Assembly: GCA_964392445.1 (NCBI GenBank)
Contig: CAYMPD010000001.1
Location: 46,698-110,697, forward strand
DNA from: an uncultured archaeon
GTDB taxonomy: Archaea > Aenigmatarchaeota > Aenigmatarchaeia > CG10238-14
DNA length: 64,000 nucleotides
Reading direction: 5' to 3'
A model generated the notes under the pieces. It was not told the origin of the DNA. It did not search any database and worked only from the letters and a program-made list of their open reading frames with translations. The position numbers and the translations under genes are program-made. This document shows positions 19,111 to 49,780 of the stretch, piece after piece (within the stretch, counting starts at the first letter, position 1; each line of letters starts with the position of its first letter).

Positions 19111-19596
19111 ATGCCACCCAAAATCTGGAGAAGTGTAATGTATGGACTTTTCATTGGTACTACTATCTCTTCAGTAGTTCTTTTTGTTTTCAGAATTATT
19201 CCTATTTCTACAATTGGTATGATAATGATACTTTATCTTTATGCTGCTGTTGGTGGGATCACGGGTTATATTGCTCATAGGAAATTTGAGGATAGTTCTA
19301 ATGTCCCCAGGGAAATAGAAAAGAAACCTGAAGAAAACCCTGATAACCCACCTCCAAAAGAAAAAGTTAATCCCACCCCAGTAAAACAGGAGATAATTAA
19401 AATCGAGAACTACAGACAAAAATTAGATGAAATTAAAAACCTCAAAAGAACTTCTCTTATTCTTAAAGGGTTAGTAAATACTCGAAAAAGGTTAGAAGAG
19501 TTAAAAAAAGAAAGTAACTCTATTCTTGAAGATAGTGTAGAAATAATGGACAATAAAAGTGCTGATTTGACTAAGAGTTATTTGAAGACTAGTTAG
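19111..19596 (+). CDS. membrane protein with C-terminal coiled coil
   Basis: 161 aa; two N-terminal TM helices, Pro/Lys-rich linker. Confidence 0.4.
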   Translation: MPPKIWRSVMYGLFIGTTISSVVLFVFRIIPISTIGMIMILYLYAAVGGITGYIAHRKFEDSSNVPREIEKKPEENPDNPPPKEKVNPTPVKQEIIKIENYRQKLDEIKNLKRTSLILKGLVNTRKRLEELKKESNSILEDSVEIMDNKSADLTKSYLKTS

Positions 19597-20699
19597 CTGT
19601 TTGTCGCTCCTGGGGTTGGTGTATCATCTACTTCGAAATCATTTGTATCACTATCCGTATCTATTCCATTAGATATCCTTGCGGTCGATCTACCGTCCTC
19701 AGGAATGGGTGCATTATCTGATGCATCACCATCATCAAAATCTCCATATGCTACTTGGTCTACAACCTCTGATAGCTCTCTTAGTATTATAACATCTCCG
19801 CCATCGTTTAAACCAAAACTGAAATCATCTCCTTTCACAAGTACCAAATACCCATTTTCCGGAATAACCATGCCATCTAAAGTGGTATTTCCACCCCCGC
19901 TACCATAAGTGGATCCTGTATTATCTTCAATTGTCCAACCAGTCAAATTAACCTCAGAACTTCCCTTATTGTATAATTCAATCCATTCATCTTCACCAGT
20001 GTTAGGATCTGAGACAAACTCATTAATTACCACTCCTTTATTGCTCTCATAGCCTTTTTTCTTTGTAGATGGAAATTCAGACTCAGATTTTATTTGCTCC
20101 ATTTTTTCGACTTCTTCTTGGAGTTCTTGTTCTACTCCGGCACAAACTTCCACAACATTCTCCTGATTTACACCCTCAAAGGTTTCGGTAACCTCACCCT
20201 TTTCCAAAACTTTAGTCAACTCTCCATTTGGAGTTGTACAAATCTGCTCAATATAACCTAAACTTCTTGTGATTTTAAATCGGTATTCATTTGTTGTTAT
20301 TTTCCAAACCGTTTTTTCGGTATCTTCTTTGACCACTGTTACTTTACCTGGTTTAGAGAGTTCCTGAAATACCTCCCCAGCAGAAATACGCATAGTAAAT
20401 TTACCAAAGGGTGTTTCATAAGTCTTTTCGAATTTTTCCGAACTAAAAATCTTTGACATTTTACTAGGAACACTTTCAACCTCACTTTCATCAGCCATAT
20501 CCAAAACTAATTTACCCGTAGGAACAGAATCACTTAACGGACCAGTGACAAGGAAAGGTATCGAAATAAGACCAGTTATAATCGAACTGATGATGACAAT
20601 ATCACTCAATGTCATGCTAATAATTGAAAATGTTCCCTTATATAATTTTCTATCTAATATAAAATTTTTTAATATGTTATATCCTAATGTAAAATACAT
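19593..20699 (-). CDS. membrane-anchored lamin-tail-domain (LTD) protein
   Basis: 368 aa; N-terminal TM; C-terminal EWIELYN...LTGW...VILRE beta-sandwich LTD pattern, acidic tail. Confidence 0.55.
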   Translation of the reverse strand: MYFTLGYNILKNFILDRKLYKGTFSIISMTLSDIVIISSIITGLISIPFLVTGPLSDSVPTGKLVLDMADESEVESVPSKMSKIFSSEKFEKTYETPFGKFTMRISAGEVFQELSKPGKVTVVKEDTEKTVWKITTNEYRFKITRSLGYIEQICTTPNGELTKVLEKGEVTETFEGVNQENVVEVCAGVEQELQEEVEKMEQIKSESEFPSTKKKGYESNKGVVINEFVSDPNTGEDEWIELYNKGSSEVNLTGWTIEDNTGSTYGSGGGNTTLDGMVIPENGYLVLVKGDDFSFGLNDGGDVIILRELSEVVDQVAYGDFDDGDASDNAPIPEDGRSTARISNGIDTDSDTNDFEVDDTPTPGATNS

Positions 20700-20853
20700 T
20701 AACTCCCTAAATCCCTAAAAAGTCGATTTTGAAGTCCTATTAGGAGTCCATATCTTTTAACCACTTTAAAGTAGCATTCAATTTAGCCCGTACCCCACTC
20801 TATCTCACACTCACTTTCAATCCGTGAGAGTTGTTCTATATTATATATTTTTT

Positions 20854-20906
20854 AAAACATATTTTACTTCTATCATATTTTTATTATATAATATAAAACA
20901 TATTTT
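20854..20906 (+). repeat. two direct copies of AAAACATATTTT (20854-20865, 20895-20906)
   Basis: Read directly in divergent intergenic region upstream of wHTH gene 20997; same 12-mer as half-site of palindrome at 22546. Confidence 0.4.
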
Positions 20907-20996: not shown

Positions 20997-21305
20997 TTGG
21001 ATTGTATGGCGGTAAAAGAAACTGAATTAACAAAGCTCTTCTTAAGGACTAAGCCTGTTAGAATGCTAATTGCTTTGAAGAAAGGTCCCAAATATTGTAC
21101 CCAAATTTCAAAGGAAATAGACTGTACCTATTCTCATACAATAAAACTTTTGGACGAGTTGGAAACATTGAATCTAGTCACATTCAAAAAACAAGGAAGG
21201 ATCAAAATTGTCAACCTAACAGAAAACGGCGAAGATCTTGCACATTCTATTGAAGGTACATTGATGAAATTGGCTAGAATCCGAGAGCAAAATAAGGAAG
21301 AGTGA
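20997..21305 (+). CDS. winged-helix DNA-binding protein
   Basis: 102 aa; HTH segment CTQISKEIDCTYSHTIKLLDELETLNLV. Confidence 0.5.
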   Translation: MDCMAVKETELTKLFLRTKPVRMLIALKKGPKYCTQISKEIDCTYSHTIKLLDELETLNLVTFKKQGRIKIVNLTENGEDLAHSIEGTLMKLARIREQNKEE

Positions 21306-21456
21306 CACTAAATAGTGTCATAAATGAGGGTTCTTGGTCTAACTGATAGTCTTTTGTTGTGTTATAGGGGGGTTTTTTCTCTTATTTAAAAGTAGTCAAT
21401 ATATGATGACATATTTATTTACTAGAAAAGGGGTATAATATAACAGGTATCATTAT

Positions 21457-22397
21457 ATGATGACGGATAATACATCAGAAGTAAAATGCCCTACATGTCG
21501 AAAAACATTCAAAAAGACTAGATATAGAAAAAAATACTGTTCTAGAGAATGTGCTCAAATAGGGATTGCTAATAGACCAAGAACAGAGGCGCTTAAATAT
21601 AAGGATAGATACTGTAAGTTTTGTGGAAATTTGTTTAGATCATCAAGAAGAGATCAAAAATTTTGTTCTAAAAGCTGCTATTATGATTATGTTAAACATA
21701 CCAATAAGTTGAGAAGACGTAAAGGACCTAACAAAGCGGAAAACATCTTATTAGGATAATAAAAGGACATGGTCTCCCTTTCAAATTTGTAGGGAATGGA
21801 GAATTCCATGTTGGGAAGAAAAATCCTGATTTTATCGGGATTGGTAAGCAAAAGTACAAAATAATAGAACTCTTCGGCGATTATTGGCATAAAAAGAAAA
21901 ATATAAGATATCACAGAACAGAAGAGGGAAGACAACTATATTATTGGAAAAGTGGTTATGATTGCTTAATAATATGGGAATCAGAATTAGAAAATGAAAA
22001 AAAGATTGTGAATAAAATTAAAAATTATCTAAGAGGTGATAACGTGCAAATTAAAACTTGGGTGATAAATAAAATAGACTATGATGAGTTTGACTGGAAT
22101 GACTTTATGGATACATTATTTCCAGGGAAAAAGGAGAAAACTAGAGAAGCTGCAAGTAAAATTTTGAAATATTTGAAAGAAAACCCAGCGACATTAAATG
22201 AAATTATTAAAAATAAGAATTTAGTTAGAGGGACAGCTTATAACGCATTTGACTATCTTAGAAAATCTGGACTTATATACAGAAAAGATAAGTATTCGAA
22301 AATAATAATCTCTGAGCAATTTGGAAGGGCACTTGAAAGGCTTGCTAAGTACTGGTATTTGTGGTGTAGAGGAGTTAAAGAAAAAAGAACTAGATAA
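21457..22397 (+). pseudogene. frameshifted gene: Zn-ribbon + Vsr/DUF559-like PD-(D/E)XK endonuclease + C-terminal wHTH
   Basis: Frame 1 ORF (21457-21759, CPTC...CSREC, CKFC...CSKSC) ends ...AENILLG*. Frame 0 is open from 21732 with no start codon and reads KGHGLPFKFVGNGEFHVGKKNPDFIGIGKQKYKIIELFGDYWH...GYDCLIIWESEL (Vsr motifs PDIV, FVDGCFWH, GWrVLrvWE), continuing to 22397 with a wHTH. The 22008..22397 ORF in the track is the tail of this frame (internal GTG). Frames join across an A-run near 21750-21762. Confidence 0.55.
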
Positions 22398-22545: not shown

Positions 22546-22569
22546 AACATATTTACTAAAAAATATGTT
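22546..22569 (+). promoter_or_regulatory. palindrome AACATATTT-N6-AAATATGTT
   Basis: Read directly in AT-rich spacer; its half-site AAAACATATTTT occurs twice as direct repeat at 20854-20865 and 20895-20906 on the other side of the wHTH/Vsr-like islet. Confidence 0.4.
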
Positions 22570-22597
22570 TTATTTTATATAATAAGTATTCACACAC

Positions 22598-22610
22598 AAA
22601 AGTGAGAGTT
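22598..22610 (+). repeat. AAAGTGAGAGTTA motif copy 1
   Basis: Exact 13-mer, 80 nt upstream of gene 22691; starts a short GTG-initiated MRVK... reading frame. Confidence 0.6.
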
Positions 22611-22690
22611 AAATTTTGGAAAGTAGAAATAAGTTTTAGTCGGAAAACACGAGGAGAAGGGTTATAAGCACATAAAATCTTAATTTAGTT

Positions 22691-23116
22691 ATGAAAATTC
22701 CTGAAAGTGTTGGCTGGGATAGAATAAACGAAGGATTGAAAAAACTAGATGTAGTTGGGATAAACCATTTCAGTCTTGGGTTACCTAAGGAAAGTGAGGG
22801 AACAAATCCTGAAAAGGTAGAACTTTTCTTCGAGGAAATGGGAAAAATTATTGGAATAGAGAATCCTAAAGAGGTGAAATCGACTGAGTGGTTCATCTAC
22901 CCTGATGGTAAAACTCCAGGATATGAGCATCTACTTTGGCCTGGTAAAAAAGTTTTTTATCATATTGAAATCGATGTTAAGGATTCTAATGAAAGAATAA
23001 TGGAGGTTTTTCCTGAAGCATTTGAAGAAAGGCCCGGAATGTTTTGGTTAACAGTAGATAAGGGTTTCTTGGGAATACTGTGGGCGGTCATTATAACTAA
23101 CAAGAGAGAAAAGTGA
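22691..23116 (+). CDS. hypothetical protein
   Basis: 141-aa ORF; preceded 80 nt upstream by AAAGTGAGAGTTA motif. Confidence 0.4.
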   Translation: MKIPESVGWDRINEGLKKLDVVGINHFSLGLPKESEGTNPEKVELFFEEMGKIIGIENPKEVKSTEWFIYPDGKTPGYEHLLWPGKKVFYHIEIDVKDSNERIMEVFPEAFEERPGMFWLTVDKGFLGILWAVIITNKREK

Positions 23117-23120
23117 GGGT

Positions 23121-23498
23121 ATGAAGCTAATAAACAAGACCAAAAATAAAGTAATCGCAACAAAAATAATAGTAAGGAAGAGCAGGATAGGGTTAATGTT
23201 AGGACTGATCCCATACAAAACCAAAAACGAATACATCTACGATTATTTGAAGTTCAAAAAGTTCGGTAGAAAAGATGCTATGCTATTCAAAGTGAGAGGT
23301 AAAGGTGGGATTCATACATGGTTTATGAGTTTTCCGATAAGTGTTTTCTTCCTGGATAAGGATATGAAAGTAATTGATAAGGTTCAACTATATCCTTTTG
23401 AGAGATATAAACCAAAGAAAAGATATGAGTGTTTTGTTGAATTGGATGGTTCCTGGATAAATAAGATAAGGATTGGAGAGGAATTAGAACTAAAGTGA
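23121..23498 (+). CDS. DUF192-family protein
   Basis: 125 aa; IHTWFMSFPISVFFLD...ELDGSW matches DUF192 (COG1430) pattern. Confidence 0.55.
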   Translation: MKLINKTKNKVIATKIIVRKSRIGLMLGLIPYKTKNEYIYDYLKFKKFGRKDAMLFKVRGKGGIHTWFMSFPISVFFLDKDMKVIDKVQLYPFERYKPKKRYECFVELDGSWINKIRIGEELELK

Positions 23499-23504
23499 GA
23501 GTTA
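23492..23504 (+). repeat. AAAGTGAGAGTTA motif copy 2
   Basis: Exact 13-mer spanning the TGA stop of the DUF192 gene. Confidence 0.6.
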
Positions 23505-23720
23505 ATCCTTCAAACTTGGGAATCCTTCTAGGTTCTTTATATCGTAAATTTCGATTAGTTTTTTTCTGCCTTCCTTTGTTTTCGATAATTCCTTGTAAAC
23601 TCTTTGGTGGTTTTGGAAAAGTGAGTTAATGAATTGGGTGTGAATCTTTCTCCACTTATCTGGGTTATTTCTAACAAATTCTGCCCATCTTTCTATTTGA
23701 TCTTGATGTGTTTCCCTCAT
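23502..23720 (-). CDS. hypothetical small protein
   Basis: 72-aa ORF, 4-nt overlap with upstream minus-strand gene. Confidence 0.3.
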   Translation of the reverse strand: MRETHQDQIERWAEFVRNNPDKWRKIHTQFINSLFQNHQRVYKELSKTKEGRKKLIEIYDIKNLEGFPSLKD

Positions 23721-24274
23721 AATCTCAACTTCTTAATCATTTGTTTGATCTTTTTTACTTCTTCTTCTTTTACTTTATCCTTGTATACCCTCCTCAAATA
23801 CTCGGCGTCTTCCAAGTCTTTGGGGGATTTTAATAAGTCTTCCTTAAAGGCTATATTCATGTTAATGGAACTAAACCATACATCTAAACCAGTTAAAGGT
23901 AATTTTTCTTTTGTTTCGAATTGATAGTTATCAAGTTCATCCTTCGCGAATTTAAGTTCAATTTCGGGTAAAGGGTTATCTTCACGGGCATACCTCACAG
24001 GGATATTACTATCCAAATAATCATAAATTTCTTCTAAATCAGGGCTTTGTATACAAGTAAATCCTTCTTCTACTAAATCTTTGTGTAATTTCTTAAAATT
24101 CTCATAGCCCATTCTCCGTATTATTATGTCTATATCTTCTGTTCCCCGAGTTCTACCTGAGGCTATCACAACAAACCCAGACACTACTATGTACTCTACA
24201 TGCTCCTCAAGTATTTCACAAAAATCGGAACAAAACTCATTCAATACATTCTTATCTGATATCTGCCTTTCCAT
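23717..24274 (-). CDS. nucleotidyltransferase-domain protein
   Basis: 185 aa; GFVVIASGRTRGTEDIDIII = minimal nucleotidyltransferase (GS...D-x-D) signature. Confidence 0.5.
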   Translation of the reverse strand: MERQISDKNVLNEFCSDFCEILEEHVEYIVVSGFVVIASGRTRGTEDIDIIIRRMGYENFKKLHKDLVEEGFTCIQSPDLEEIYDYLDSNIPVRYAREDNPLPEIELKFAKDELDNYQFETKEKLPLTGLDVWFSSINMNIAFKEDLLKSPKDLEDAEYLRRVYKDKVKEEEVKKIKQMIKKLRL

Positions 24275-24308
24275 GATTATTACTAGAATTCCAGAAATTT
24301 ATTCTTGA

Positions 24309-24321
24309 AAAGTGAGAGTTA
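24309..24321 (+). repeat. AAAGTGAGAGTTA motif copy 3
   Basis: Exact 13-mer in spacer between two minus-strand genes. Confidence 0.6.
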
Positions 24322-24945
24322 TTTCACTACTTTAACACTCTTAATTACAACATCTTCAGCAGGAACATTCCCGTACATACCTACATTGTGAGTTTTTACC
24401 TTAGCTATAGAATCAACAACGTCCATACCTTCAATCACTTTACCAAAAACAGCATAACCATAAGGATCATTACCTCCTGGATTAAGAAAATCATTATCAA
24501 CTAGGTTAATGAAAAACTGGGAAGTTGCGGAATCAGGGTTGTTTGTCCTTGCCATTGCTATAGTGCCTCTTTCATTTGTTAGTCCACTGTCCTTGGCTTC
24601 GTTCTTGATAGTTGAGTATTTCGTTTCTTTTTCAGTCATTCCAGGTTCAAATCCTCCGCCCTGTATCATAAATCCATCTATCACTCTGTGAAAGATTAGT
24701 CCATCATAAAACCTATTCTCGACATACTTGAGGAAATTCTCGGTTGTTTTAGGTGCTCTTTGTCCATCTAACTCCAAAACGATTGTCCCCTTATTCGTTA
24801 CCATCTCGACATTGACCATACCCGAAACTTTGTTGTTAGAAATATTAATTAGTTTGTAACCGAAAAATGTAAGAACCACCAAAATTGTTATTAAACCTAG
24901 TATCAAATATTTTCTCTCTATCTGAATTTCCACTGACATGAACAA
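24319..24945 (-). CDS. Peptidyl-prolyl cis-trans isomerase, cyclophilin type, membrane-anchored
   Basis: 208 aa; N-terminal TM; [15 protein letters not shown]...NTNGSQFFI-like cyclophilin core. Confidence 0.85.
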
Positions 24946-24976
24946 TATTTGAAAAATAGATTATTATTTTTTACCG

Positions 24977-24989
24977 AAAGTGAGAGTTA
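24977..24989 (+). repeat. AAAGTGAGAGTTA motif copy 4
   Basis: Exact 13-mer; GTG within it opens a 33-codon hydrophobic ORF (MRVKLTILDLIIASIGLILLGLGYIDQCNCVSI) upstream of the ATP-grasp cassette. Confidence 0.6.
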
Positions 24990-25103
24990 AACTAACAATT
25001 TTAGATTTAATTATTGCCTCTATAGGTCTTATTTTATTAGGACTAGGATATATAGACCAATGTAATTGTGTGAGTATTTGATCAGGTGATAGACTGAAGG
25101 AAC

Positions 25104-25125
25104 CCAGATAGATTCCTTTTCAGGT
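25104..25125 (+). repeat. 22-nt direct repeat, left copy (CCAGATAGATTCCTTTTCAGGT)
   Basis: 20/22 identity with 27792-27813; the two copies bracket the ATP-grasp/amidohydrolase three-gene cassette. Confidence 0.6.
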
Positions 25126-25136
25126 CCCTGAAAAGG
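25115..25136 (+). promoter_or_regulatory. perfect 10-bp-arm palindrome CCTTTTCAGG-TC-CCTGAAAAGG
   Basis: Read directly; overlaps left direct repeat, about 65 nt upstream of ATP-grasp gene start; operator- or hairpin-like. Confidence 0.45.
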
Positions 25137-25199
25137 GGATTTATATAGTTTCATCACCACCAAAATGCTTAATTTAGAGGTCATGTATATATTTCTTGT

Positions 25200-26081
25200 A
25201 TGAAAATTGTTATTTTAGGCTCCCCAGAAAGGAGAAAAAAAGACTTAGAACTCCTGAAAGACGCAAAAGGGGTTTTTGATAAAGCTTTATATGTTTCAAT
25301 AGATTCCGTTAAGTTGGAGGTATCAGACGAAATGAAAGTATCCTTCGAAAAGACTGATCTTTCAGATTTCGACGTAATTCTCCCTGTGCCCACATATGAA
25401 CACAAAGAAACCTATTATATGTGTCTGAAAATTCTTGAAAAAAGTTGTTATGTTCCATACAAGAGCGATGATTTCTTTTTACTCTGGAACAAACCACTTT
25501 TAATAAAGAAACTTCAAGAGAGTGATATTAACGTGAGGAAAACAGTTGTAGTCGCATCTAATTATATACCCGAAAATGCTGTAAAAGAATTGAAATTGCC
25601 TATCATTGTTAATTCATATAAGGGGAAAGTTTTGGTCACCGACAAAAATACCCTTAAGGATGTTATGGATTTATTTAAAAAAGGTATAATGAATAGACTT
25701 GAGAAGCCTATATCGGCTAATAAGAGTATCTGGTGCTTTATTGTCGGTGACGAAGTTATTGGTTGTTATGAAAAAGTAGGTGATGAGAGAAAAAGAATGA
25801 CTAAAGCCAGTTCGGATATTACTAAATTATCTAAAAGGATAAAATCCATTGTCAATACTGATTTCTGCATAATTAATTTCCTAGAAACTAAAGACAAAAT
25901 AATCGTAAAAAATATTAGTGTGACACCAGATTTCCCGTTGTTTGAAAAAATCACAGGTAAAAACCTAGGCTTGAGTTTACTAATTTATGTTAAAAGCCAG
26001 ATTGAAGAAGAAAAACTTCCTTTTATAACGAAATTCATAATAGACGTTATGGATTTATTGAAAAGGTTGGTGAAACAATGA
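25200..26081 (+). CDS. ATP-grasp (RimK-like) paralog, probably catalytically degenerate
   Basis: 293 aa; N-terminus and domain order parallel the downstream RimK-like gene (MKIVILG..LSDFDVILP) but lacks the Gly-rich ATP loop; 4-nt overlap with next gene. Confidence 0.5.
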   Translation: MKIVILGSPERRKKDLELLKDAKGVFDKALYVSIDSVKLEVSDEMKVSFEKTDLSDFDVILPVPTYEHKETYYMCLKILEKSCYVPYKSDDFFLLWNKPLLIKKLQESDINVRKTVVVASNYIPENAVKELKLPIIVNSYKGKVLVTDKNTLKDVMDLFKKGIMNRLEKPISANKSIWCFIVGDEVIGCYEKVGDERKRMTKASSDITKLSKRIKSIVNTDFCIINFLETKDKIIVKNISVTPDFPLFEKITGKNLGLSLLIYVKSQIEEEKLPFITKFIIDVMDLLKRLVKQ

Positions 26082-26944
26082 AAATAGCGATATTGGGTAA
26101 AGTAAAAAGGAGTTACGAAGAAATAAAGATCATAAAAGAAGCGAAGAAAGTTTTTAACTCTGTTTTATATTTACCTATACCAGAAGCGAGGATAGAGATA
26201 AATTCCGACTTCAGTGTTAAATTTAAGAACGAAGATTTGTCGGACTTTGACTGTATATTACCAAGGATTCCCCGAAGTTATAGGACATATGGATTCACGT
26301 TATTGTCAGCTCTTAAAGGCAAAACATTTGTGCCAATAGAGCCAATGTCCTTGTTCAACTGTCATAATAAATTCCTAACCCTCATGATACTGAATGAAGA
26401 GGGTTTACCTGTACCTAAAACATTACTATCCGAAAAGAGAAAAATCATCGAGGATTCCTTGGATGAAATAGGTTATCCAGTTGTAATGAAACTTCTCTAC
26501 GGTTCCATGGGGAAAGGTGTAATGTTTGCAGACGGCAAACAATCTGCTATAAGTTTCATGGACACACTTGAAAGATTCGACGAACCAATTTTCGTCGAGG
26601 AATTTGTTCCAAATAATGGAGAGGATATTAGAATTTACATGGTAGATCATGAACCCATTGCTTGTATGAAGAGAGTGGCAAAAGAAGGGGAAAAAAGGTC
26701 TAATATTGGGATTGGGGGAAAAGGGGAAAAGTACATATTGCCTGAAAAATACGAAGATCTGGTCCACAGTGCATCCAAGTCACTTGAAGCCAGGATTTGT
26801 GGCTTGGATTTGATGGAATCCAAGAAAGGACCCGTTTTTATTGAAGCTAATATCAACGCCCAATTCAAGGGACTAGAAGAAGCTACCAAAATCAACGTTG
26901 CAAAAATTATAATAGAATTTATGAAGAGCTGTGTGAAAGAGTGA
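26078..26944 (+). CDS. RimK/LysX-family ATP-grasp ligase (alpha-L-glutamate ligase-like)
   Basis: 288 aa; GYPVVMKLLYGSMGKGVMF (Lys + Gly loop), EEFVPNNGEDIRIYMVD, GLDLMESKKGPVFIEANINAQF (catalytic E-x-N). Confidence 0.8.
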   Translation: MKIAILGKVKRSYEEIKIIKEAKKVFNSVLYLPIPEARIEINSDFSVKFKNEDLSDFDCILPRIPRSYRTYGFTLLSALKGKTFVPIEPMSLFNCHNKFLTLMILNEEGLPVPKTLLSEKRKIIEDSLDEIGYPVVMKLLYGSMGKGVMFADGKQSAISFMDTLERFDEPIFVEEFVPNNGEDIRIYMVDHEPIACMKRVAKEGEKRSNIGIGGKGEKYILPEKYEDLVHSASKSLEARICGLDLMESKKGPVFIEANINAQFKGLEEATKINVAKIIIEFMKSCVKE

Positions 26945-26948
26945 AAGA

Positions 26949-27785
26949 ATGGATTTTCTTAGATTTAGTGACTTAAAATCAATGGATAGTTTTCTAGAGG
27001 AGATTAGTGTCAAAAGAGAAGACAAAATGGAGTATTACAAATTTAGCAAGTTCGAGGAGAACAGAATTCTTTTTACAGCCGAGCACAGCAAAATCGTGAA
27101 ATTTCAGACCTCTAAATTCCCAAGACCCAATTGTATCGAATTAGGTGATAGAAATACTGACAAAATCGCTAAACTGATGTCCTACAAACTTAAATCTGGG
27201 TATCTTATTTTCGGGTACCCGAGAACGGAAGTTGATGCATCAAGATCTTTCAGAACTTTGGGTGGAGATGAAAAAATAAAGGCTGCAGTTACAAGAAAAA
27301 AAGAATTATTAGGAAAAGTGGATGTAAAGATACACCAAAATGAGAAATATTTGTCAAACCTTCAGAAATACCATTCTATAGTTGAAAAATCGAACCCTAA
27401 GATAATAGCGTCCATCCATGGTATACAGAGGAGACACAAAAATGATGTAGTTTTTGGGTTAGGTGAGAATTCTGAGTATGTGGGTGGGGCGAAGGAAGAG
27501 AAAAGGTTAATGAATATACTCGAAAAAAATCTTGAAGAAAATGGTCAATCAGACTTGAAATTCAGAGTTTCAAAAAAATATTATACTGGTAAAAGGAATT
27601 TTGTTTTACATCGAAATATCCTCGAGTTCAATAGAAGTAATCCAGAAAAAAGGTACGGCATGCAGATAGAATTTAATAGGAGAACCAGAGTGGGAGATAA
27701 ATCCAAAGAGTTCATAAAAAAGAAATATCAAATTGTATGTCAAATAATAGCGGATTCAATTTTAGAGTGGGGAAAACCTAAATGA
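26949..27785 (+). CDS. putative creatininase/ArfB-family-like amidohydrolase (tentative)
   Basis: 278 aa; FTAEHS, GDRNTDKIAKL, IIASIHGIQRRHKN segments resemble creatininase-family metal ligands (EQHG / TD..IA / NGHxxN) from memory; cannot be confirmed without a profile search. Confidence 0.4.
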   Translation: MDFLRFSDLKSMDSFLEEISVKREDKMEYYKFSKFEENRILFTAEHSKIVKFQTSKFPRPNCIELGDRNTDKIAKLMSYKLKSGYLIFGYPRTEVDASRSFRTLGGDEKIKAAVTRKKELLGKVDVKIHQNEKYLSNLQKYHSIVEKSNPKIIASIHGIQRRHKNDVVFGLGENSEYVGGAKEEKRLMNILEKNLEENGQSDLKFRVSKKYYTGKRNFVLHRNILEFNRSNPEKRYGMQIEFNRRTRVGDKSKEFIKKKYQIVCQIIADSILEWGKPK

Positions 27786-27791
27786 GTCGAT

Positions 27792-27813
27792 CCAAATAGA
27801 TTCCTATTCAGGT
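27792..27813 (+). repeat. 22-nt direct repeat, right copy (CCAAATAGATTCCTATTCAGGT)
   Basis: 20/22 identity with 25104-25125; 7 nt downstream of cassette's last stop codon; further weak similarity extends about 40 nt (GGGATT-AT...). Confidence 0.6.
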
Positions 27814-27908
27814 AAGGGACCCAAAGAAGCCTAGATGCTCAGAAATGATGGGATTATTTCAATGGAGGGTGTGAAAAAGTATTATGATAAAAAACCATGA
27901 GTATCAAA

Positions 27909-27921
27909 AAAGTGAGAGTTA
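27909..27921 (+). repeat. AAAGTGAGAGTTA motif copy 5
   Basis: Exact 13-mer 50 nt upstream of ndk. Confidence 0.6.
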
Positions 27922-27970
27922 AATACAAAAAATTTAACTGATAAAACCAAATTAATTCAGAGGTGAGTTC

Positions 27971-28567
27971 ATGGGAGATGTATGGCAAAGGACATTATTT
28001 ATGGTTAAACCTGATGGTGTTAAAAGAGGGTTAGTGGGAGAGTGTTTTAGAAGAGCAGAGAACGCTGGATTAAGTGTTATAGCAATGAAAATGATCCATC
28101 CAACAAGAGAACAGGCGGATAGACATTATCCAAGTGAGGAAGATGATAAAGACTGGTTCCTAAAGGTAGCCGAGAAAGGAAGAAAAGGATACGAGAAAAG
28201 AGGTTTAGAATTTCCTTACGATGATATGGAATATGCCAGAAACATCAAAAAATGGTTAGTTGATTACTTATCTTCTGGTCCTGTTGTTGCTTCGGTTTTA
28301 GAAGGTCCAAATGCGATTAGTATGGTTAGGAAGATTTGTGGAGCAACGGAGCCTGCTCAAGCGGAAATAGGTACAATAAGGGGAGATTTCTCGGTTGATA
28401 GTTACAAACTGGCAAATAAACTAGAAAGACCACTCAAGAACATAGTTCATGCAGCATCCAGTCCTAAAGACGCGGAGAAAGAGATTAAAGTTTGGTTTAG
28501 TGAAGATGAAATAATGGAATATAAGAGAGCGGAAGAAGGTGTGATGTTCGATCCAATCGAAAAGTGA
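27971..28567 (+). CDS. ndk: Nucleoside diphosphate kinase (long form with insertion)
   Basis: 198 aa; TLFMVKPDGV, GTIRGDF, NIVHAAS (catalytic His) motifs; about 45-aa insertion relative to 150-aa NDKs. Confidence 0.85.
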   Translation: MGDVWQRTLFMVKPDGVKRGLVGECFRRAENAGLSVIAMKMIHPTREQADRHYPSEEDDKDWFLKVAEKGRKGYEKRGLEFPYDDMEYARNIKKWLVDYLSSGPVVASVLEGPNAISMVRKICGATEPAQAEIGTIRGDFSVDSYKLANKLERPLKNIVHAASSPKDAEKEIKVWFSEDEIMEYKRAEEGVMFDPIEK

Positions 28568-28631
28568 GACTTCACAGGGTAAAATCCTCGTCACTAGTTA
28601 CAAAAATCCAGACTTAGACGGAACTGCATGT

Positions 28632-29498
28632 ATGGTTGGTTATTCTGAATTGCTTAGAAAGAAAGGTGAGGATGCTAGTCCAGGTTATTTTGGAAATCTT
28701 CAAAGGGAGACTAAGTATCTTCTTAAGAAATTCCGTATCTCTAGACCTAAGAAGGGTGAGGATCTAATCGAAAAGTGTGATAAGGTTGTAGTAGTTGACA
28801 ATGTTAACCCCATTGGTTTATCGGAAAAAATAGACCTTGAAAAGGTCGTGGAAGTTATCGATCACCATTATTCTGAAAAGAGACTTTTGAAAGAATATCC
28901 TAATGCTAAAGGGGAGATAGAAGAGGTTGGAGCGGCAGCAACATTAATAGTTGAAAAGTATATGGAATCTGAAATACCGATCGACAGAGATCCTGCAATC
29001 TTGCTTTACAGTGGCATTATTTCCAATACCTTGAATTTCCAATCAAATACAACAACTGAAAGGGATAAGAAAGCTGCGAAATGGTTGAGAAAGTTAATTG
29101 ATATCCCTAAAACTTTTGCAAGAGATATGTTCGCCTCGAAATCGGATCTAAGTGATAAGAAAATTTATGATGTGTTAACTGGTGATTTGAAAGAACTGAA
29201 AGATGATTCTCTTTATATTGCACAACTAGAGATAATTGATTTAGAAAAAACAGTGAGAGAAGGGAAAGAGGAAATAACCAAAGCGCTCAAGACGATTAAA
29301 AAAGAAAAAAGTGGAAAATATGTCTTCCTAACGGGAATGGATCTCGAGAAAGGATTCAATCTCTTTTTGGTAGTGGATGATAAAAGTAAGGAACTTCTTG
29401 AGAAAGCTCTAAATGTTAAATTTGTTAATAATATAGCCAGGCGAGAAGGATTAATCATGAGAAAGGAAATAATACCAATAATTGAAAAATACTTGTGA
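28632..29498 (+). CDS. DHH-family phosphoesterase (start unresolved; conserved N-terminal motif lies upstream of first ATG)
   Basis: VVVVDNV..EVIDHHYS (DHH motif). The same frame is open from 28545 and encodes KILVTSYKNPDLDGTAC (DHH motif I) with no ATG/GTG/TTG before 28632. Confidence 0.7.
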   Translation: MVGYSELLRKKGEDASPGYFGNLQRETKYLLKKFRISRPKKGEDLIEKCDKVVVVDNVNPIGLSEKIDLEKVVEVIDHHYSEKRLLKEYPNAKGEIEEVGAAATLIVEKYMESEIPIDRDPAILLYSGIISNTLNFQSNTTTERDKKAAKWLRKLIDIPKTFARDMFASKSDLSDKKIYDVLTGDLKELKDDSLYIAQLEIIDLEKTVREGKEEITKALKTIKKEKSGKYVFLTGMDLEKGFNLFLVVDDKSKELLEKALNVKFVNNIARREGLIMRKEIIPIIEKYL

Positions 29499-29511
29499 AA
29501 AGTGAGAGTTA
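29499..29511 (+). repeat. AAAGTGAGAGTTA motif copy 6
   Basis: Exact 13-mer whose last A is the A of the NUDIX ATG; preceded by TGA stop of DHH gene. Confidence 0.6.
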
Positions 29512-29987
29512 TGAAACCAGGTAAAGACTTCATTGGCTTAGGAGTAGGAGCAATAATACAAAACGAAAAGGACCAAGTCCTACTTCTTAAAAGACCAGAT
29601 ACAATAACCCCTGATAGAACAACATCTGGAATGTGGTCAGTTCCTGGGGGTGAAGTTAAGTTTATGGAAAAAGTTGAAGATGCACTCAAACGAGAAGTGA
29701 GAGAAGAGATAGGAGTGGAAGTTGAAATAATTAAACCTATAGAATATCATGATCAGATACTAGATGAATCCCAAGTACACTGGCATTGTCAATCATTTCT
29801 TTGCAAAATTAAAGAGGGTAAACCTGAAATACATGAACCAAGTAAATGTGAGGATTTGAAGTGGTTTGATACTGATATTCTCCCCGAGAAGTGTGGTATA
29901 GCCCATATTGTTGTTCCTCTGTACAAGCTTGGCTGGATTAGTAAGAGTGAGTATGAAAGGAGATTAAGAAACACCCCCGAGAGTTGA
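29511..29987 (+). CDS. NUDIX hydrolase
   Basis: Nudix box GGEVKFMEKVEDALKREVREEIGVEVE; ATG at 29511 is immediately preceded by AAAGTGAGAGTT (track used in-motif GTG 29502). Confidence 0.8.
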   Translation: MKPGKDFIGLGVGAIIQNEKDQVLLLKRPDTITPDRTTSGMWSVPGGEVKFMEKVEDALKREVREEIGVEVEIIKPIEYHDQILDESQVHWHCQSFLCKIKEGKPEIHEPSKCEDLKWFDTDILPEKCGIAHIVVPLYKLGWISKSEYERRLRNTPES

Positions 29988-30526
29988 TTAGTATGGATAT
30001 AGAAATTTTCAAGAAAAATAAAAAGTCTCTCCTAGTCATGGGAATTGGTATTATAATAGGGATGATCGGGCTTTTTCTGTTCCCAACTTTTCTAATCTTT
30101 ACTATTTTTCTTGTAGGTACTGGAATCTTAAACTTCGTACAGAGTAGGATGGAACTTCCATTTGACCTGACACCCTCCTTAGCTATCTTGATTCTCTTCT
30201 CGATAAAATTAGGATTTCTTGAGGGGATGATATTTCTGATATTGGGTTCTATAATACCCGGGATACTGGGAGGGGGATTTAATCACATGACTTTATTTTT
30301 CTTCCTTTTAGCTATGGGTATAAGTTATCTGGGATCATCATCTTTAATTGGGGACTTGAGAATCTATGGTATTGTCCTTATTGTGATTCAAGGCGTCTTT
30401 AGTTATCTAATCATAAAGCTCTTTTCGGTTGATCCTACGGATATTTTATCTGTTTTTCTAGGGTTCTTTGTAAACATTAGTTATTTTTTAGTTTTAAGTG
30501 AGTTAATAGCGAGCGTATTGGTTTGA
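29984..30526 (+). CDS. polytopic membrane protein
   Basis: 180 aa, 5-6 predicted TM helices; 4-nt overlap with NUDIX gene. Confidence 0.5.
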   Translation: MISMDIEIFKKNKKSLLVMGIGIIIGMIGLFLFPTFLIFTIFLVGTGILNFVQSRMELPFDLTPSLAILILFSIKLGFLEGMIFLILGSIIPGILGGGFNHMTLFFFLLAMGISYLGSSSLIGDLRIYGIVLIVIQGVFSYLIIKLFSVDPTDILSVFLGFFVNISYFLVLSELIASVLV

Positions 30527-30563
30527 ATGATACTTATTTCTTTATTTTCCTAAAAAGTGAGAC

Positions 30564-30749
30564 ATGAGTTATTGGTATTGTTTGGATTGCAGAAAAGTCG
30601 TGGATACTTATATGGATATTTTCAAAGCTTTCTCGCTTTGCTGTAAAGAGTGTGGGAGTACTAGGTTGTTGAAATTGAATAAGATGGATGAGAAAGAGTT
30701 TGATAAATTTGTTGAAGAATTCAAAAGGAAGACTGGGGAGGTTGAGTGA
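30564..30749 (+). CDS. Zn-ribbon protein with acidic C-terminal tail ending in Glu (LysW-like architecture)
   Basis: 61 aa; CLDC...CKEC ribbon then MDEKEFDKFVEEFKRKTGEVE; ATG directly preceded by AAAGTGAGAC. Confidence 0.45.
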   Translation: MSYWYCLDCRKVVDTYMDIFKAFSLCCKECGSTRLLKLNKMDEKEFDKFVEEFKRKTGEVE

Positions 30750-30750
30750 A

Positions 30751-31155
30751 GTGAAGGTTTATGTTGCGTCTAGATTTAATAATCAGCAAAAAGTCAAAGA
30801 AATTTATAGGGAACTGATTGAAAATGGGTTTGAAATAACTGTTGATTGGACCAAACATAAAAAAGTGAAGCCTTATGAAAAGAATCCTAAAATGTCTGAG
30901 AAATATTCAAAGGAAGATATCGAGGGGGTAAAAGATTCTGATATTTTAATTTTGTTGACTACTGAAAACCCTGGTAAAGGCATGTTTGTAGAAATGGGGG
31001 CTGCTATAATAGTAAATATACTTACAGGAAAACCAAAGATTTACATAATTGGAGATTATAATAAACAATCCCTATTTTACTTTCATCCGAACGTTAAGCG
31101 CCTAAACACGATAGAAGATGTTATTGAAGACTTGAAGAAAAGTGAGGTTTCATGA
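30751..31155 (+). CDS. nucleoside 2-deoxyribosyltransferase-like Rossmann protein (tentative)
   Basis: GTG start at 30751 preceded by GGGGAGGTTGA (SD-like); MKVYVASRFNN...ENGFEITVDW resembles NDT-like family N-terminus; track ORF (30688) starts inside upstream gene. Confidence 0.45.
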   Translation: MKVYVASRFNNQQKVKEIYRELIENGFEITVDWTKHKKVKPYEKNPKMSEKYSKEDIEGVKDSDILILLTTENPGKGMFVEMGAAIIVNILTGKPKIYIIGDYNKQSLFYFHPNVKRLNTIEDVIEDLKKSEVS

Positions 31156-48817: not shown

Positions 48818-49780
48818 TTAGTGATAAAGGTCTCTAATAAGTTCACGAGATAATATTTCGATTCTAGGTCCAATTTTTTCCATCGCGGCCAATACCTCAG
48901 CATCATCAGTATTATTAGTAAGTGTATCATGATCAAATTTTTCATCATAAACCTCTTCCATTGTATTTGATATACCGGATATTCCTAAAACTCTTACATC
49001 TTCCAAATCATCTGAGCCCTCCAGGCCCAGAAACCCTCTCATTCCTATAAGTTCTATAATAGTTGACATCCCAACACTACCCAATCCAAATGCTCGAAAT
49101 CTTGATGTTTTAGCGGCAGGCTCAAATTCGGAGCCAGCAACATACCTATAAACACCAGTTCTACATGGTATTTCAAGTTTTTCAGCGATGTCTTTTACCC
49201 TATCTGTGAGCTCTAAGTCATAAATACCACCATAATAAGGTTGTGGGAGATGGTGAACTACACGAACATCAGGAGGTGGACATATTAAAGGGTTCTGATC
49301 ATGAGTTAAAGATGAGTAATCGTGATCAATTATTAGCATCAAATCCCCCACTTCATAGTCGGAATTAAGGCCCCCAGCAGCATTTGTCAAGACCAAAAGT
49401 TCTATACCCATTAATTTCATTAATCTCGTTAAAAATGCTATTTCATGTCCATTATATCCTTCATGGTAATGATTCCTACCGTTTGCAACTATTGTTTCAA
49501 CATCTTCAAAATACCCTACTGAGAATTTCTTTTCGTGTCCAATTGCGGAATATCTTCCAGGAATAGGAGGGAAACATAGAATATTAGAATATGGAATCTC
49601 AACACCACCCTCTGGTACTATACAACCCTTTTGTGCCGAACCAAGAATAAAACCTAATCTTGGACTTTGAAGACTTCTAGGAACTTGATCTAATAAATCT
49701 CTATAGGCTCTTGAAAGATCATGTGAAGTAAGATATTCCTTTTCCGCCTTTTCAATATAATTTAACCAGGGATTTATCAT
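48818..49780 (-). CDS. purine nucleoside / methylthioadenosine phosphorylase family
   Basis: 320 aa; FGLGSVGMSTIIELIGMRG (phosphate-binding G-x-G... VGMST) PNP/MTAP signature. Confidence 0.75.
   Translation of the reverse strand: MINPWLNYIEKAEKEYLTSHDLSRAYRDLLDQVPRSLQSPRLGFILGSAQKGCIVPEGGVEIPYSNILCFPPIPGRYSAIGHEKKFSVGYFEDVETIVANGRNHYHEGYNGHEIAFLTRLMKLMGIELLVLTNAAGGLNSDYEVGDLMLIIDHDYSSLTHDQNPLICPPPDVRVVHHLPQPYYGGIYDLELTDRVKDIAEKLEIPCRTGVYRYVAGSEFEPAAKTSRFRAFGLGSVGMSTIIELIGMRGFLGLEGSDDLEDVRVLGISGISNTMEEVYDEKFDHDTLTNNTDDAEVLAAMEKIGPRIEILSRELIRDLYH

Follow-up and report, generated by a model that had tools for sequence, protein, structure and literature searches.

The 13-bp sequence AAAGTGAGAGTTA occurs in six exact copies, all on the + strand, between positions 22599 and 29511 of a 64-kb window (the whole stretch of DNA that was analysed) from a DPANN Aenigmarchaeota contig, and the balance of the evidence inclines towards its being an asymmetric operator of local winged-helix proteins that has been multiplied into co-oriented intergenic sites. 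The statistics of the motif, its orientation, its position at gene junctions, its conservation, its co-occurrence with winged-helix (wHTH) genes, its spacing from TATA boxes and its coincidence with rearrangement breakpoints are observed directly.

Copies of the 13-mer in the window

By chance 0.01 copies of AAAGTGAGAGTTA would be expected, and none of 100 shuffles reaches six. It is the most repeated complex 13-mer of the 64-kb window, in which no exact copy was found outside the 22599-29511 array. The repeated 13-mer, first noted in a preliminary description of this DNA, is real, and a word search of the window recovers all six exact + strand copies (22599, 23492, 24309, 24977, 27909, and 29499), the first of them starting at 22599 and not 22598. 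The variants reported at 28561, 30554, 23110, and 40183 are likewise in place, with that assigned to 31138 starting at 31139. The sequence is asymmetric over about 13 bp and is not palindromic, and its extended form is (A)AAAGTGAGAGTTA(A). The copies in and beyond the array are as follows, those marked as new being absent from the preliminary description.

22599..22611, +, site 1, exact, head of the array; 18-20 nt 3' of a conserved TATA box; contains the predicted transcription start
23110..23122, +, degenerate site AAAGTGAGGGTAT where a 141-aa ORF meets DUF192
23289, copy with 1 mismatch within the DUF192 coding sequence, encoding FKVRGK (new)
23492..23504, +, site 2, exact; the entire spacer of two convergent genes
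24309..24321, +, site 3, exact; between the stop of cyclophilin (-) and the promoter of a nucleotidyltransferase gene (-)
24977..24989, +, site 4, exact; in the divergent spacer past the cyclophilin start
27909..27921, +, site 5, exact; opens the conserved 62-nt NDK leader; TATA-like sequence upstream
28561..28573, +, variant site AAAGTGAGACTTC at the NDK/DHH junction; includes the NDK stop codon
29499..29511, +, site 6, exact; the entire DHH-NUDIX spacer, its last A being the A of the NUDIX ATG (29511)
30554..30566, +, degenerate site AAAGTGAGACATG directly 5' of a Zn-ribbon gene
31139..31151, +, degenerate site AAAGTGAGGTTTC 5' of a MazG-like gene
35010, additional copy within the gdh coding sequence (new)
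40183, +, variant copy

The array sites are all direct repeats, whichever way the neighbouring genes point, and for several copies the gap between the neighbouring genes, 0-15 nt long, is taken up by the site. The overlap of the motif with the TGA stop of an upstream gene and the sharing of its last A with the NUDIX ATG, both described before, are borne out; the upstream stop is the TGA of the motif at 23492, 28561, and 23110. At site 2 this TGA is the DUF192 stop, with the TTA of the motif forming the stop of a 72-aa minus-strand gene, and at site 3 the TTA is the stop of cyclophilin (-). The placement at the 5' ends of genes that had been proposed does not hold for every copy: those at 23492 and 24309 each adjoin a minus-strand gene at its 3' end, and the TTA is read there as a TAA stop. 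Embedded blocks of minus-strand genes have a + oriented site at the 3' end in 10 out of 12 cases.

At site 4 the GTG of the motif opens a 33-codon hydrophobic ORF, and GTG-initiated frames beginning MRV are present as reported. The site at 23110, AAAGTGAGGGTAT, doubles as a GAGG ribosome-binding site. The motif is not the generic ribosome-binding site, as was correctly recognised, since other genes have canonical GGAGGTGA-type sites in front of them. Across four genomes, namely the window and the loci L153, L154, and L155, there are 25 junction copies that differ from the 13-mer at no more than one position. Degeneracy among the sites is graded, the core AAAGTGAG being retained and the 3' half variable at some junctions, a pattern to be expected if the sites bind with different strengths.

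Conservation of the sites and of the adjoining winged-helix locus

Conservation in related genomes, which the preliminary description had put forward as a check on its claim, is striking, and the claim stands. The same 13-mer is found in the same orientation at gene boundaries in the syntenic loci of L153, L154, and L155, where the DHH proteins are just 60-67% identical. There are four exact copies in L153, three in L154, and four in L155, plus copies with 1 mismatch, all on the + strand. The non-coding DNA flanking the sites often cannot be aligned between genomes.

Site 1 has orthologues at L153 4868, L154 2043, L155 505, and L159 3744, with the spacing from TATA box to motif conserved. Site 2 corresponds to L153 6409 and a collinear block begins exactly there, while the left flank of site 3 and the right flank of site 4 are both orthologous to L153 7226. 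Orthologues of site 5 (L153 7800, L154 4395, L155 7093) and site 6 (L153 9391, L155 8652) are present, and the NDK/DHH junction site is found in all four genomes with 1-2 mismatches. Of the degenerate sites, that at 23110 has a 1-mismatch copy at the equivalent L154 junction (2634), AAAGTGAGACATG recurs identically at L154 6278, and AAAGTGAGGTTTC has relatives at L153 11028, L154 6861, and L155 9660.

The head of the array adjoins a locus with the following features.

19593..20699, -, lamin-tail-domain (LTD) protein gene; divergent, with the minus-oriented site pair in its promoter; candidate target
20805..20832, inverted pair at the LTD-gene promoter, adjoining the LTD TATA box: degenerate copy AAAGTGAGTGTGA on the - strand (20817-20805) and partial copy GTGAGAGTT on the + strand (20824-20832), neither listed in the preliminary description
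21006..21305, +, wHTH1, 99-aa winged-helix protein; candidate site-binding protein
22044..22397, +, wHTH2, 117-aa winged-helix protein; second conserved gene, directly upstream of promoter P1
22574..22583, +, TATA box of P1, TTTATATAAT; part of a 26-nt promoter
22612..22690, +, purine-rich leader following site 1; sequence conserved in five genomes
23121..23498, +, DUF192 gene; conserved first gene 3' of the P1 site in all genomes; candidate target

A scan with the wHTH1 alignment identified eight loci, and wherever downstream sequence is available a site with no more than two mismatches lies in the interval from wHTH2 to DUF192. This site is GAAGTGAGAGTTC in a genome of 47% GC and AAAGTGAGAGTGAGAGTTA in genomes of 25-33% GC. 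In 194 kb of 31 other Aenigmarchaeota loci both the motif and wHTH1 are absent. The motif co-occurs with the conserved wHTH gene pair in nine genomes, which, with the conserved TATA spacing, makes a regulon-specific operator or promoter element the best supported of the four explanations first offered. Identity of wHTH1 between genomes is 62-86%, above that of DUF192 (45-72%) and of DHH; wHTH2 has a GTG start and a canonical AGAGGTGAT ribosome-binding site. Matches of both proteins in Pfam and NCBIfam are weak and generic wHTH alone. In the distant genomes only the P1 copy is present, in a fixed place in the promoter adjoining the wHTH genes, while in the clade of the window the site is amplified to almost all junctions, those at the 3' ends of minus-strand genes among them.

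At P1 the 3' end of the TATA box is 13-20 nt upstream of the motif GTG in six genomes. In standard archaeal promoters the centre of the TATA box is about 26-27 nt before the start, and by this geometry transcription would be predicted to begin inside the motif in each of the six. Conservation of the NDK and P1 leaders starts exactly at the motif, with no conserved RNA structure found in the 22612..22690 leader across five genomes. The 26-nt P1 promoter has an inverted duplicate at 20881-20906. Over the sites as a whole, the interval 14-32 nt upstream has an excess of AT-rich, TATA-like sequence (mean AT 0.77 vs 0.67), and a strong 8-mer TATA-like match is present upstream of 37% of sites vs 14% of random positions; there is none at the NDK/DHH junction, the convergent junctions, or several other copies.

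At the LTD promoter the pattern ACTCAC-N9/10-GTGAG is invariant in the window, L153, and L154. The array, most of which is on the + strand, has all its copies in + orientation, also where they flank embedded minus-strand genes, and the LTD-promoter copy is minus. This opposite orientation at the LTD promoter would suggest that the orientation of the site tracks the direction of transcription.

The proposed operator model and its analogues

The protein docking at the 13-mer would be wHTH1 (21006-21305), wHTH2 (22044-22397), or both. The ancestral layout across the Aenigmarchaeota appears to be the LTD gene (-), wHTH1, wHTH2, the TATA box with the site, and DUF192. Bound over the P1 start, the protein would block recruitment of RNA polymerase or its escape from the promoter, repression being the presumed outcome, and the minus-oriented variant pair may act likewise at the divergent LTD promoter. 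In the window's clade the site would then have been copied into almost all junctions of a stretch of about 9 kb, pointing along the + strand array. Copies behind TATA-like sequences are probable operators of internal promoters (NDK, possibly NUDIX). Those inside operons or before embedded minus-strand genes, with no apparent promoter, might by analogy with mycobacteriophage stoperators be orientation-dependent roadblocks. Read-through on the + strand would end at them, so that the array is silenced and polymerase does not enter the embedded genes in antisense. Since the sites are the only repeats of the region, they may have become places of cassette insertion, loss, and reordering.

The usual targets of winged-helix regulators are palindromes, bound by dimers, and that this 13-mer is non-palindromic argues against an operator, as does its letter-perfect conservation over 13 positions, which is unusual for cellular operators. 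Archaeal operators that overlap the start, such as those of the TrmB-family, Lrp-type, and MDR1-type, are usually palindromic and degenerate and occur once or twice per promoter. The arrangement here is like these in that a winged-helix gene adjoins the candidate target, the site covers the predicted start just 3' of the TATA box, and there is a second site in a divergent promoter, that of LTD. It is unlike them in that the site is asymmetric and invariant, and that one clade has a dozen junction copies, including some at non-promoter positions.

The closest analogue is the operators and stoperators of Cluster A mycobacteriophages (L5 gp71 and relatives), although the proteins are unrelated. 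Stoperators are asymmetric, 13 bp long, and found both in promoters and in the short gaps between genes, and their orientation is tied to transcription (PMC9283540). As in L5, there are many near-identical asymmetric copies of 13 bp in promoter and short intergenic positions, often touching stop or start codons, and a regulator gene, here the candidate regulators, is nearby (PMC9283540). Unlike phage L5, the array is on an archaeal cellular chromosome, syntenic across genera and without phage genes, and its sites also flank embedded opposite-strand genes and match rearrangement breakpoints. In place of a repressor of the gp71 type, a monomer with an HTH and a stoperator domain, there are two distinct candidates for binding, both winged-helix proteins about 100 aa long, and the transcription machinery is the archaeal TBP/TFB/RNAP. 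There is no meaningful similarity of L5 gp71 to wHTH1 and wHTH2 (BLASTP E = 0.73 and E = 7.2), which leaves the roadblock mechanism as pure analogy.

Rival readings: possible cassette exchange, RNA-level roles and promoter elements

Site-specific recombination at cassette boundaries, another of the original suggestions, fits part of the evidence. The 13-mer would be the core crossover site of a dedicated system with an integron-like variable array, in which circular cassettes, of one site and at least one gene, are excised and re-inserted at other copies, and the copy behind P1, taken as a strong promoter, is the counterpart of attI/Pc. Collinear blocks and cassette gain or loss do end exactly at the sites: 23492-24321 of the window matches L153 6409-7238, the sites on either side being part of the match. 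Between the two genomes the order of the cyclophilin and toxin-antitoxin-like cassettes is reversed, with their orientation unchanged. In L155 there is a retroelement block (RT and bAvd; a DGR cassette) between two sites where L154 has one, giving upstream-site-insert-site-downstream, and NUDIX is flanked by two sites in three genomes, L154 having one site and no NUDIX. The site-insert-site form is also seen for the cyclophilin cassette. The sites are direct repeats regardless of gene orientation, and there is a reversed toxin-antitoxin-like cassette, as is typical of chromosomal integrons. Such exact coincidence of sites with gain, loss, and reordering of cassettes would be equally expected from a recombination site.

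Even so, a dedicated recombination system is judged unlikely, though it is still in contention. No integrase or recombinase was found by Pfam among the ORFs from 12 to 42 kb or in the precomputed Pfam annotation of L153-L155, although integron arrays without IntI do exist, so that this absence alone is not decisive. At 24 of the 25 sites there is no RYYYAAC (R'' inverse core) 40-140 nt upstream, and there is no attC-like hairpin. The more distant genomes have a single site in a fixed promoter place beside the wHTH genes, two indels have one boundary away from a site (141-aa ORF vs Metallophos; RimK operon vs 106-aa gene), and there are junction sites, NDK-DHH among them, at which no rearrangement has taken place. 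Cassette identity of 72-80% between genomes argues against recent exchange, and ordinary recombination between the region's only repeats would give the same breakpoints. Identity of the sites with integron attC was rejected, there being no folded 57-141-nt palindrome and no R''/R' core pair; no consistent hairpin was found at the sites, GTTRRRY fits only some of them, and several are coding on both sides.

The likeness to integrons, including archaeal ones (PMC9668308), is in the co-oriented sites at cassette boundaries, the head promoter, and the gain, loss, and reordering at sites, as well as the reversed cassette. The differences are that no IntI gene is seen, that the 13-mer is linear and letter-perfect, that relatives have a single promoter copy tied to regulator genes, and that many of the 'cassettes' are conserved housekeeping-type genes. 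It is conceivable, but quite unlikely, that the array is a new integron-like cassette-exchange platform of DPANN archaea, with a linear 13-bp core, a recombinase of a new type or encoded elsewhere, and the winged-helix pair as factors for site recognition or directionality. With its head promoter, co-oriented sites, and capture, loss, and shuffling of cassettes, this would be a previously unrecognised exchange platform.

A role of the motif in the + strand RNA seems similarly doubtful, whether in translation initiation or coupling, where it would be an atypical ribosome-binding site that brings its own UGA stop and GUG start, or as a processing or stability signal that a protein reads at the 5' end of each cistron. 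The stop/restart coupling that had been suggested is in keeping with only a subset of sites. Many sites contain the upstream stop codon, and there is an ATG or TTG 10-13 nt after the site at NUDIX (three genomes), DHH (L154, L155), DUF192 (window, L154), epimerase (L155), and Zn-ribbon. Where sites form the entire spacer 10-13 nt before a start codon, those copies may have a translational role. The ORF opened by the motif GTG is conserved between the window and L153, and GTGA, but no more, is common to the motif and the canonical GGAGGTGA ribosome-binding site; the 16S rRNA gene lies outside the window. Many copies are nevertheless far from starts or beside minus-strand genes, where they would occur in antisense RNA only. 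The P1 and NDK-leader copies are 60-100 nt before the next start, NDK having its own GAGGTGA site, and with the P1 start predicted inside the motif the RNA would hold only half of it. There is no conserved RNA structure or Rfam match, and the co-inheritance with wHTH and the LTD inverted pair are left unexplained. A fixed Shine-Dalgarno spacing was rejected, as the nearest start codon is more than 20 nt away for the P1, NDK-leader, convergent, and minus-gene-adjacent copies. The conserved leader peptides proposed earlier did not hold up either: the peptides of the GTG frames are not conserved, and the MRV frames range from 5 to 21 codons among orthologous copies.

It is very improbable that the copies each belong to a + strand promoter of their own, as its initiator or a promoter-proximal element, and form a start motif peculiar to the lineage with no binding protein dedicated to it, given that known archaeal initiator elements are about 2 nt and not 13, that TATA-like sequence is missing at the NDK/DHH, convergent, and several other copies, that copies preceding minus-strand genes would drive only antisense RNA, and that the tight wHTH linkage is unexplained, even though TATA-like sequence is enriched 14-32 nt upstream and conservation of the NDK and P1 leaders begins at the motif.

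Copies of the 13-mer and the genes around them

The 13-mer AAAGTGAGAGTTA is present in six exact copies in the window (22599, 23492, 24309, 24977, 27909, and 29499), all on the + strand, where dinucleotide-preserving shuffles of the window give an expected count of 0.01. It is the most repeated of the non-trivial 13-mers of the window, with no exact copy in the remaining 55 kb, and the variant copies listed in the preliminary description are also found. The flanks of the six exact copies are mutually unrelated, so that the 13-mer is a short discrete motif rather than the end of a longer repeat; a longer hidden repeat or MITE is ruled out by these unrelated flanks and by a conserved core of 13–15 nt. 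The motif had been described as marking the 5' ends of genes. All of the exact copies are indeed at gene boundaries, but some of these boundaries are not 5' ends.

Selected copies of the 13-mer (sites numbered from the left) and their positions relative to genes
22599 and 27909, +: sites 1 and 5, next gene 62–90 nt downstream
23492, +: site 2, fills the spacer of two convergent genes completely; TGA serves as the stop of the DUF192 gene and TTA as the TAA stop of the minus-strand 72-aa gene
24309, +: site 3, its TTA gives the stop of the minus-strand cyclophilin gene
29499, +: site 6, forms the whole DHH–NUDIX spacer

Genes around the motif
Left part: lamin-tail-domain (LTD) protein (minus strand), two small winged-helix genes, a 141-aa ORF, DUF192
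Middle: 72-aa gene and 185-aa nucleotidyltransferase-like gene (minus strand), cyclophilin (minus strand), two RimK-type ligases and a 278-aa gene
Right part: NDK, DHH/DHHA2 phosphoesterase, NUDIX, membrane protein, Zn-ribbon protein, nucleoside deoxyribosyltransferase-like protein, MazG-like protein

The window is from a DPANN Aenigmarchaeota MAG of ~35% GC and contains an archaeal rpo/S12/S7/EF-2/EF-1alpha cluster. Its EF-1alpha has a 100% match on an NCBI contig, and the relatives of EF-1alpha carry the label Aenigmarchaeota; the window's own proteins have no record under exact look-up. The start codon of the DHH/DHHA2 gene has been lost, there being TCG at 28557–28559 where homologues have a TTG start (TTGAAAAGTGAGAG in the related locus L153), and the conserved N-terminus KILVTSYKNPDLDG is without an in-frame ATG, GTG, or TTG ahead of 28632. 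In the homologues, this TTG is found 4 nt ahead of the motif or occupies motif positions 11–13. A frameshift by a 1-nt homopolymer error, which would make the GTG of the motif the DHH start, was dropped, because the homologues start at TTG and the window has TCG at that codon. The public protein record is a truncated 288-aa form without the DHH domain.

Conservation in related loci and the winged-helix genes

The sequence compared amounted to 64 kb for the source genome and ~20 kb for each relative. With RimK homologues as anchors (no more than 67% identical; 194 kb from 31 further contigs of Aenigmarchaeota), not even 10-mers of the motif were found and comparable repeats were absent; neither a RimK-based genome scan nor a literature search for the 13-mer sequence gave anything useful. 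Homologues of DHH led to three syntenic loci, L153 (GCA_014728985.1), L154 (a JGI contig), and L155 (GCA_016783305.1, of the same species as L156–158). These carry four, three, and four exact copies of the 13-mer, respectively, in addition to copies with 1 mismatch, at a DHH identity of just 60–67%, and all are at gene boundaries and on the DHH strand. The 25 junction copies in the four genomes, of which the orthologous ones are not independent observations, give the consensus (A)AAAGTGAGAGTTA(A), with almost no variation at any position. The conservation in related genomes to which the preliminary description looked is therefore borne out, the motif being kept far beyond its flanks.

A copy with 1 mismatch, AAAGTGAGAGGTA, is within the DUF192 CDS (encoding FKVRGK) and kept in all genomes (window 23289–23301, L153 5126, L154 2813, L155 766, L159 5465), and L159 has an exact copy within an epimerase gene, where it encodes KVRVK. 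Such copies in coding sequence may be either functional sites or coincidences retained by protein selection. Directly after site 4, the window and L153 share 55 nt (24999–25053; L153 7248–7302) at 100% identity, against just 70–80% for neighbouring genes at the DNA level. This stretch is in a hydrophobic ORF that opens with GTG and has 33 codons in the window and 27 in L153, and it has no match in Rfam or viral contigs; the lack of any synonymous change suggests nucleotide-level constraint or recent conversion.

Directly to the left of the first copy, in all of these genomes, are two small winged-helix genes, wHTH1 (~100 aa, 79–86% identical) and then wHTH2 (~113 aa; 22044–22397 in the window). 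Scanning species-representative genomes with an alignment of wHTH1 gave eight loci. The order LTD (minus strand), wHTH1, wHTH2, site, DUF192 recurs at every one with readable downstream sequence, and each of these has the site with no more than 2 mismatches between wHTH2 and DUF192. In the more distant genomes this is the single copy of the site.

The site between wHTH2 and DUF192 in loci from the wHTH1 scan
L159: AAAGTGAGAGTTC
L160 (47% GC genome): GAAGTGAGAGTTC
L161: AAAGTGAGAGTGA
L162, L163, and L165: AAAGTGAGAGTGAGAGTTA

wHTH1 is more conserved (62–86%) than DUF192 (45–72%) and matches the uncharacterised archaeal winged-helix structure AF_1382 (PDB 2qvo, E = 2.6e-5); the other matches of wHTH1 and wHTH2 are weak and to generic wHTH. 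In the window, wHTH2 is behind a window-specific insertion of ~650 bp (21394–22043) that separates it from wHTH1. The insertion contains a 100-aa Zn-ribbon ORF with a weak NinG-like match, followed in another reading frame by a start-less open frame that runs into wHTH2; on visual inspection the sequence of this frame (...ELFGDYWH...) suggests a nuclease, and Pfam gives no nuclease match. The whole resembles an inserted gene that has decayed or been frameshifted.

Promoter geometry and a candidate operator

The first copy follows a conserved TATA box in the arrangement TTTATATAAT-N-AAAGTGAGAGTTA, in an intergenic region with a mean column identity of 80% over the four genomes. The archaeal TATA box is centred ~26–27 nt upstream of the transcription start, which would place the predicted start of this putative promoter, P1, within the motif, near 22604 in the window. 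The predicted start is also inside the motif in L159, L160, L161, and L163, with a TATA-to-GTG distance of 13 to 20 nt. Next to the TATA box of the divergent LTD promoter is an inverted pair that is also conserved, ACTCAC-N9/10-GTGAG, the fuller member of which is directed at LTD, on the minus strand. Just a subset of the amplified copies (P1, those upstream of NDK, and the DHH/NUDIX junction) have a TATA-like sequence upstream, there being none at the NDK/DHH junction or the convergent junctions.

The BRE/TATA region of P1 is also part of a 26-nt inverted repeat (20881–20906 and 22560–22585, 96% complementary; AAAATATGTTTTAT(T/A)TTATATAATAA), the second copy facing the opposite way in the LTD–wHTH1 spacer, with further partial AT-rich copies at 20838–20866. 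After site 1 there is a purine-rich leader (22612–22690; AAATTTGAAAAGTAGAAATAAGTTTTGGG...GAGAAAGGCTAAAAGG), kept in five genomes, for which no consensus structure is predicted and no conserved ORF was found.

These sequence patterns point to the 13-mer as a candidate protein-binding operator for wHTH1 and/or wHTH2, since it is co-inherited with the pair, the ancestral copy holds a fixed promoter position, the divergent promoter has an oppositely oriented copy, and the junction copies degenerate in a graded manner. In the clade of the window, the site has multiplied in the direction of the + strand array, promoterless positions included. It is immediately before embedded minus-strand gene blocks in 10 of 12 cases, and we infer by analogy that co-oriented junction copies may act as roadblocks to elongation.

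Among described architectures, the nearest is that of the operator/stoperator sites of Cluster A mycobacteriophages, where asymmetric 13-bp sites occupy promoters as well as short spaces between genes, have an orientation tied to transcription, and mediate an orientation-dependent block to elongation (PMC9283540). Neither wHTH1 nor wHTH2 is related to L5 gp71, and the sites here are carried by the chromosome of a cellular archaeon, so the likeness is a functional analogy rather than family membership. Should the co-oriented junction copies prove to be roadblocks, they would extend stoperator-like silencing architectures for the first time beyond the actinobacteriophages, and for the first time to an archaeal (Pol II-like) polymerase. 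To our knowledge, gene regulation in the DPANN archaea is almost unstudied because these organisms are uncultured; the candidate regulator–site pair is concrete and testable, wHTH1, wHTH2, and the 13-bp site all being short enough for synthesis.

Block boundaries and other readings of the site

The preliminary description also raised the boundaries of recombination cassettes. In blastn comparisons, collinear blocks start and stop at the site: window 23492–24321 corresponds to L153 6409–7238 with both flanking sites included, the cyclophilin block begins at window 24309 and L153 5722, and the NDK-to-MazG block begins at window 27909 and L153 7800. The order of the cyclophilin cassette and the 72/185-aa cassette is exchanged between the window and L153. 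NUDIX is between two sites in three genomes and absent from L154, where one site remains. Likewise, L155 has a diversity-generating retroelement block between two sites where L154 has one; it is at L155 4493–7092 (the same in L156), and its three genes, for an RVT_1 reverse transcriptase, bAvd, and a 234-aa protein, are on the minus strand. Two differences have one boundary off any site. One, upstream of DUF192, is the 141-aa ORF as against Metallophos, and the other is the RimK operon as against a 106-aa gene.

This breakpoint pattern is real, and blocks and gene gain or loss bounded by the sites would favour a dedicated recombination function. Such a function is a live but less likely rival reading, as the breakpoints can arise by recombination between what are the sole repeats of the locus; no recombinase gene was found near the array, and there are no attC features. 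The sites do mark the entry and exit points of genes, the retroelement included, and the locus is therefore a natural case of regulatory repeats channelling rearrangement in very small genomes. A canonical integron attC is ruled out, there being no R'' core, no hairpin, and, by Pfam, no IntI.

The RimK-type operon, missing at this position in L153, is flanked by a 22-nt direct repeat, CCARATAGATTCCTWTTCAGGT (25104–25125 and 27792–27813, 91% identical), the first copy of which is part of a 10-bp palindrome, CCTTTTCAGG/CCTGAAAAGG; the repeats may delimit the RimK insertion.

A virus or provirus origin is not supported: in one direct check, a 44-nt element of the locus had no match in viral contigs, and a 14-mer scan of these gave just single chance matches. 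A structured RNA or known RNA family is ruled out by unremarkable fold z-scores, a P1 leader that lacks a consensus structure, and the absence of any above-chance match in Rfam. Conserved leader peptides, suggested previously, are contradicted by MRV... frames of 5 to 21 codons among orthologous copies. That the motif is not a generic ribosome-binding site, as also proposed, holds, other genes of the window using GGAGGTGA-type sites or appearing leaderless and half of the copies being without a start codon nearby. Replication-origin boxes and strand-polar motifs (KOPS/Chi-like) are ruled out by the restriction of the copies to one 9-kb locus and by GC skew that merely tracks gene orientation.

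A second 13-mer, GTTATGATAAATC, is present three times in the window (41429, 49771, and 55185), and the copy at 49771 overlaps the start of the gene at 48818–49780.
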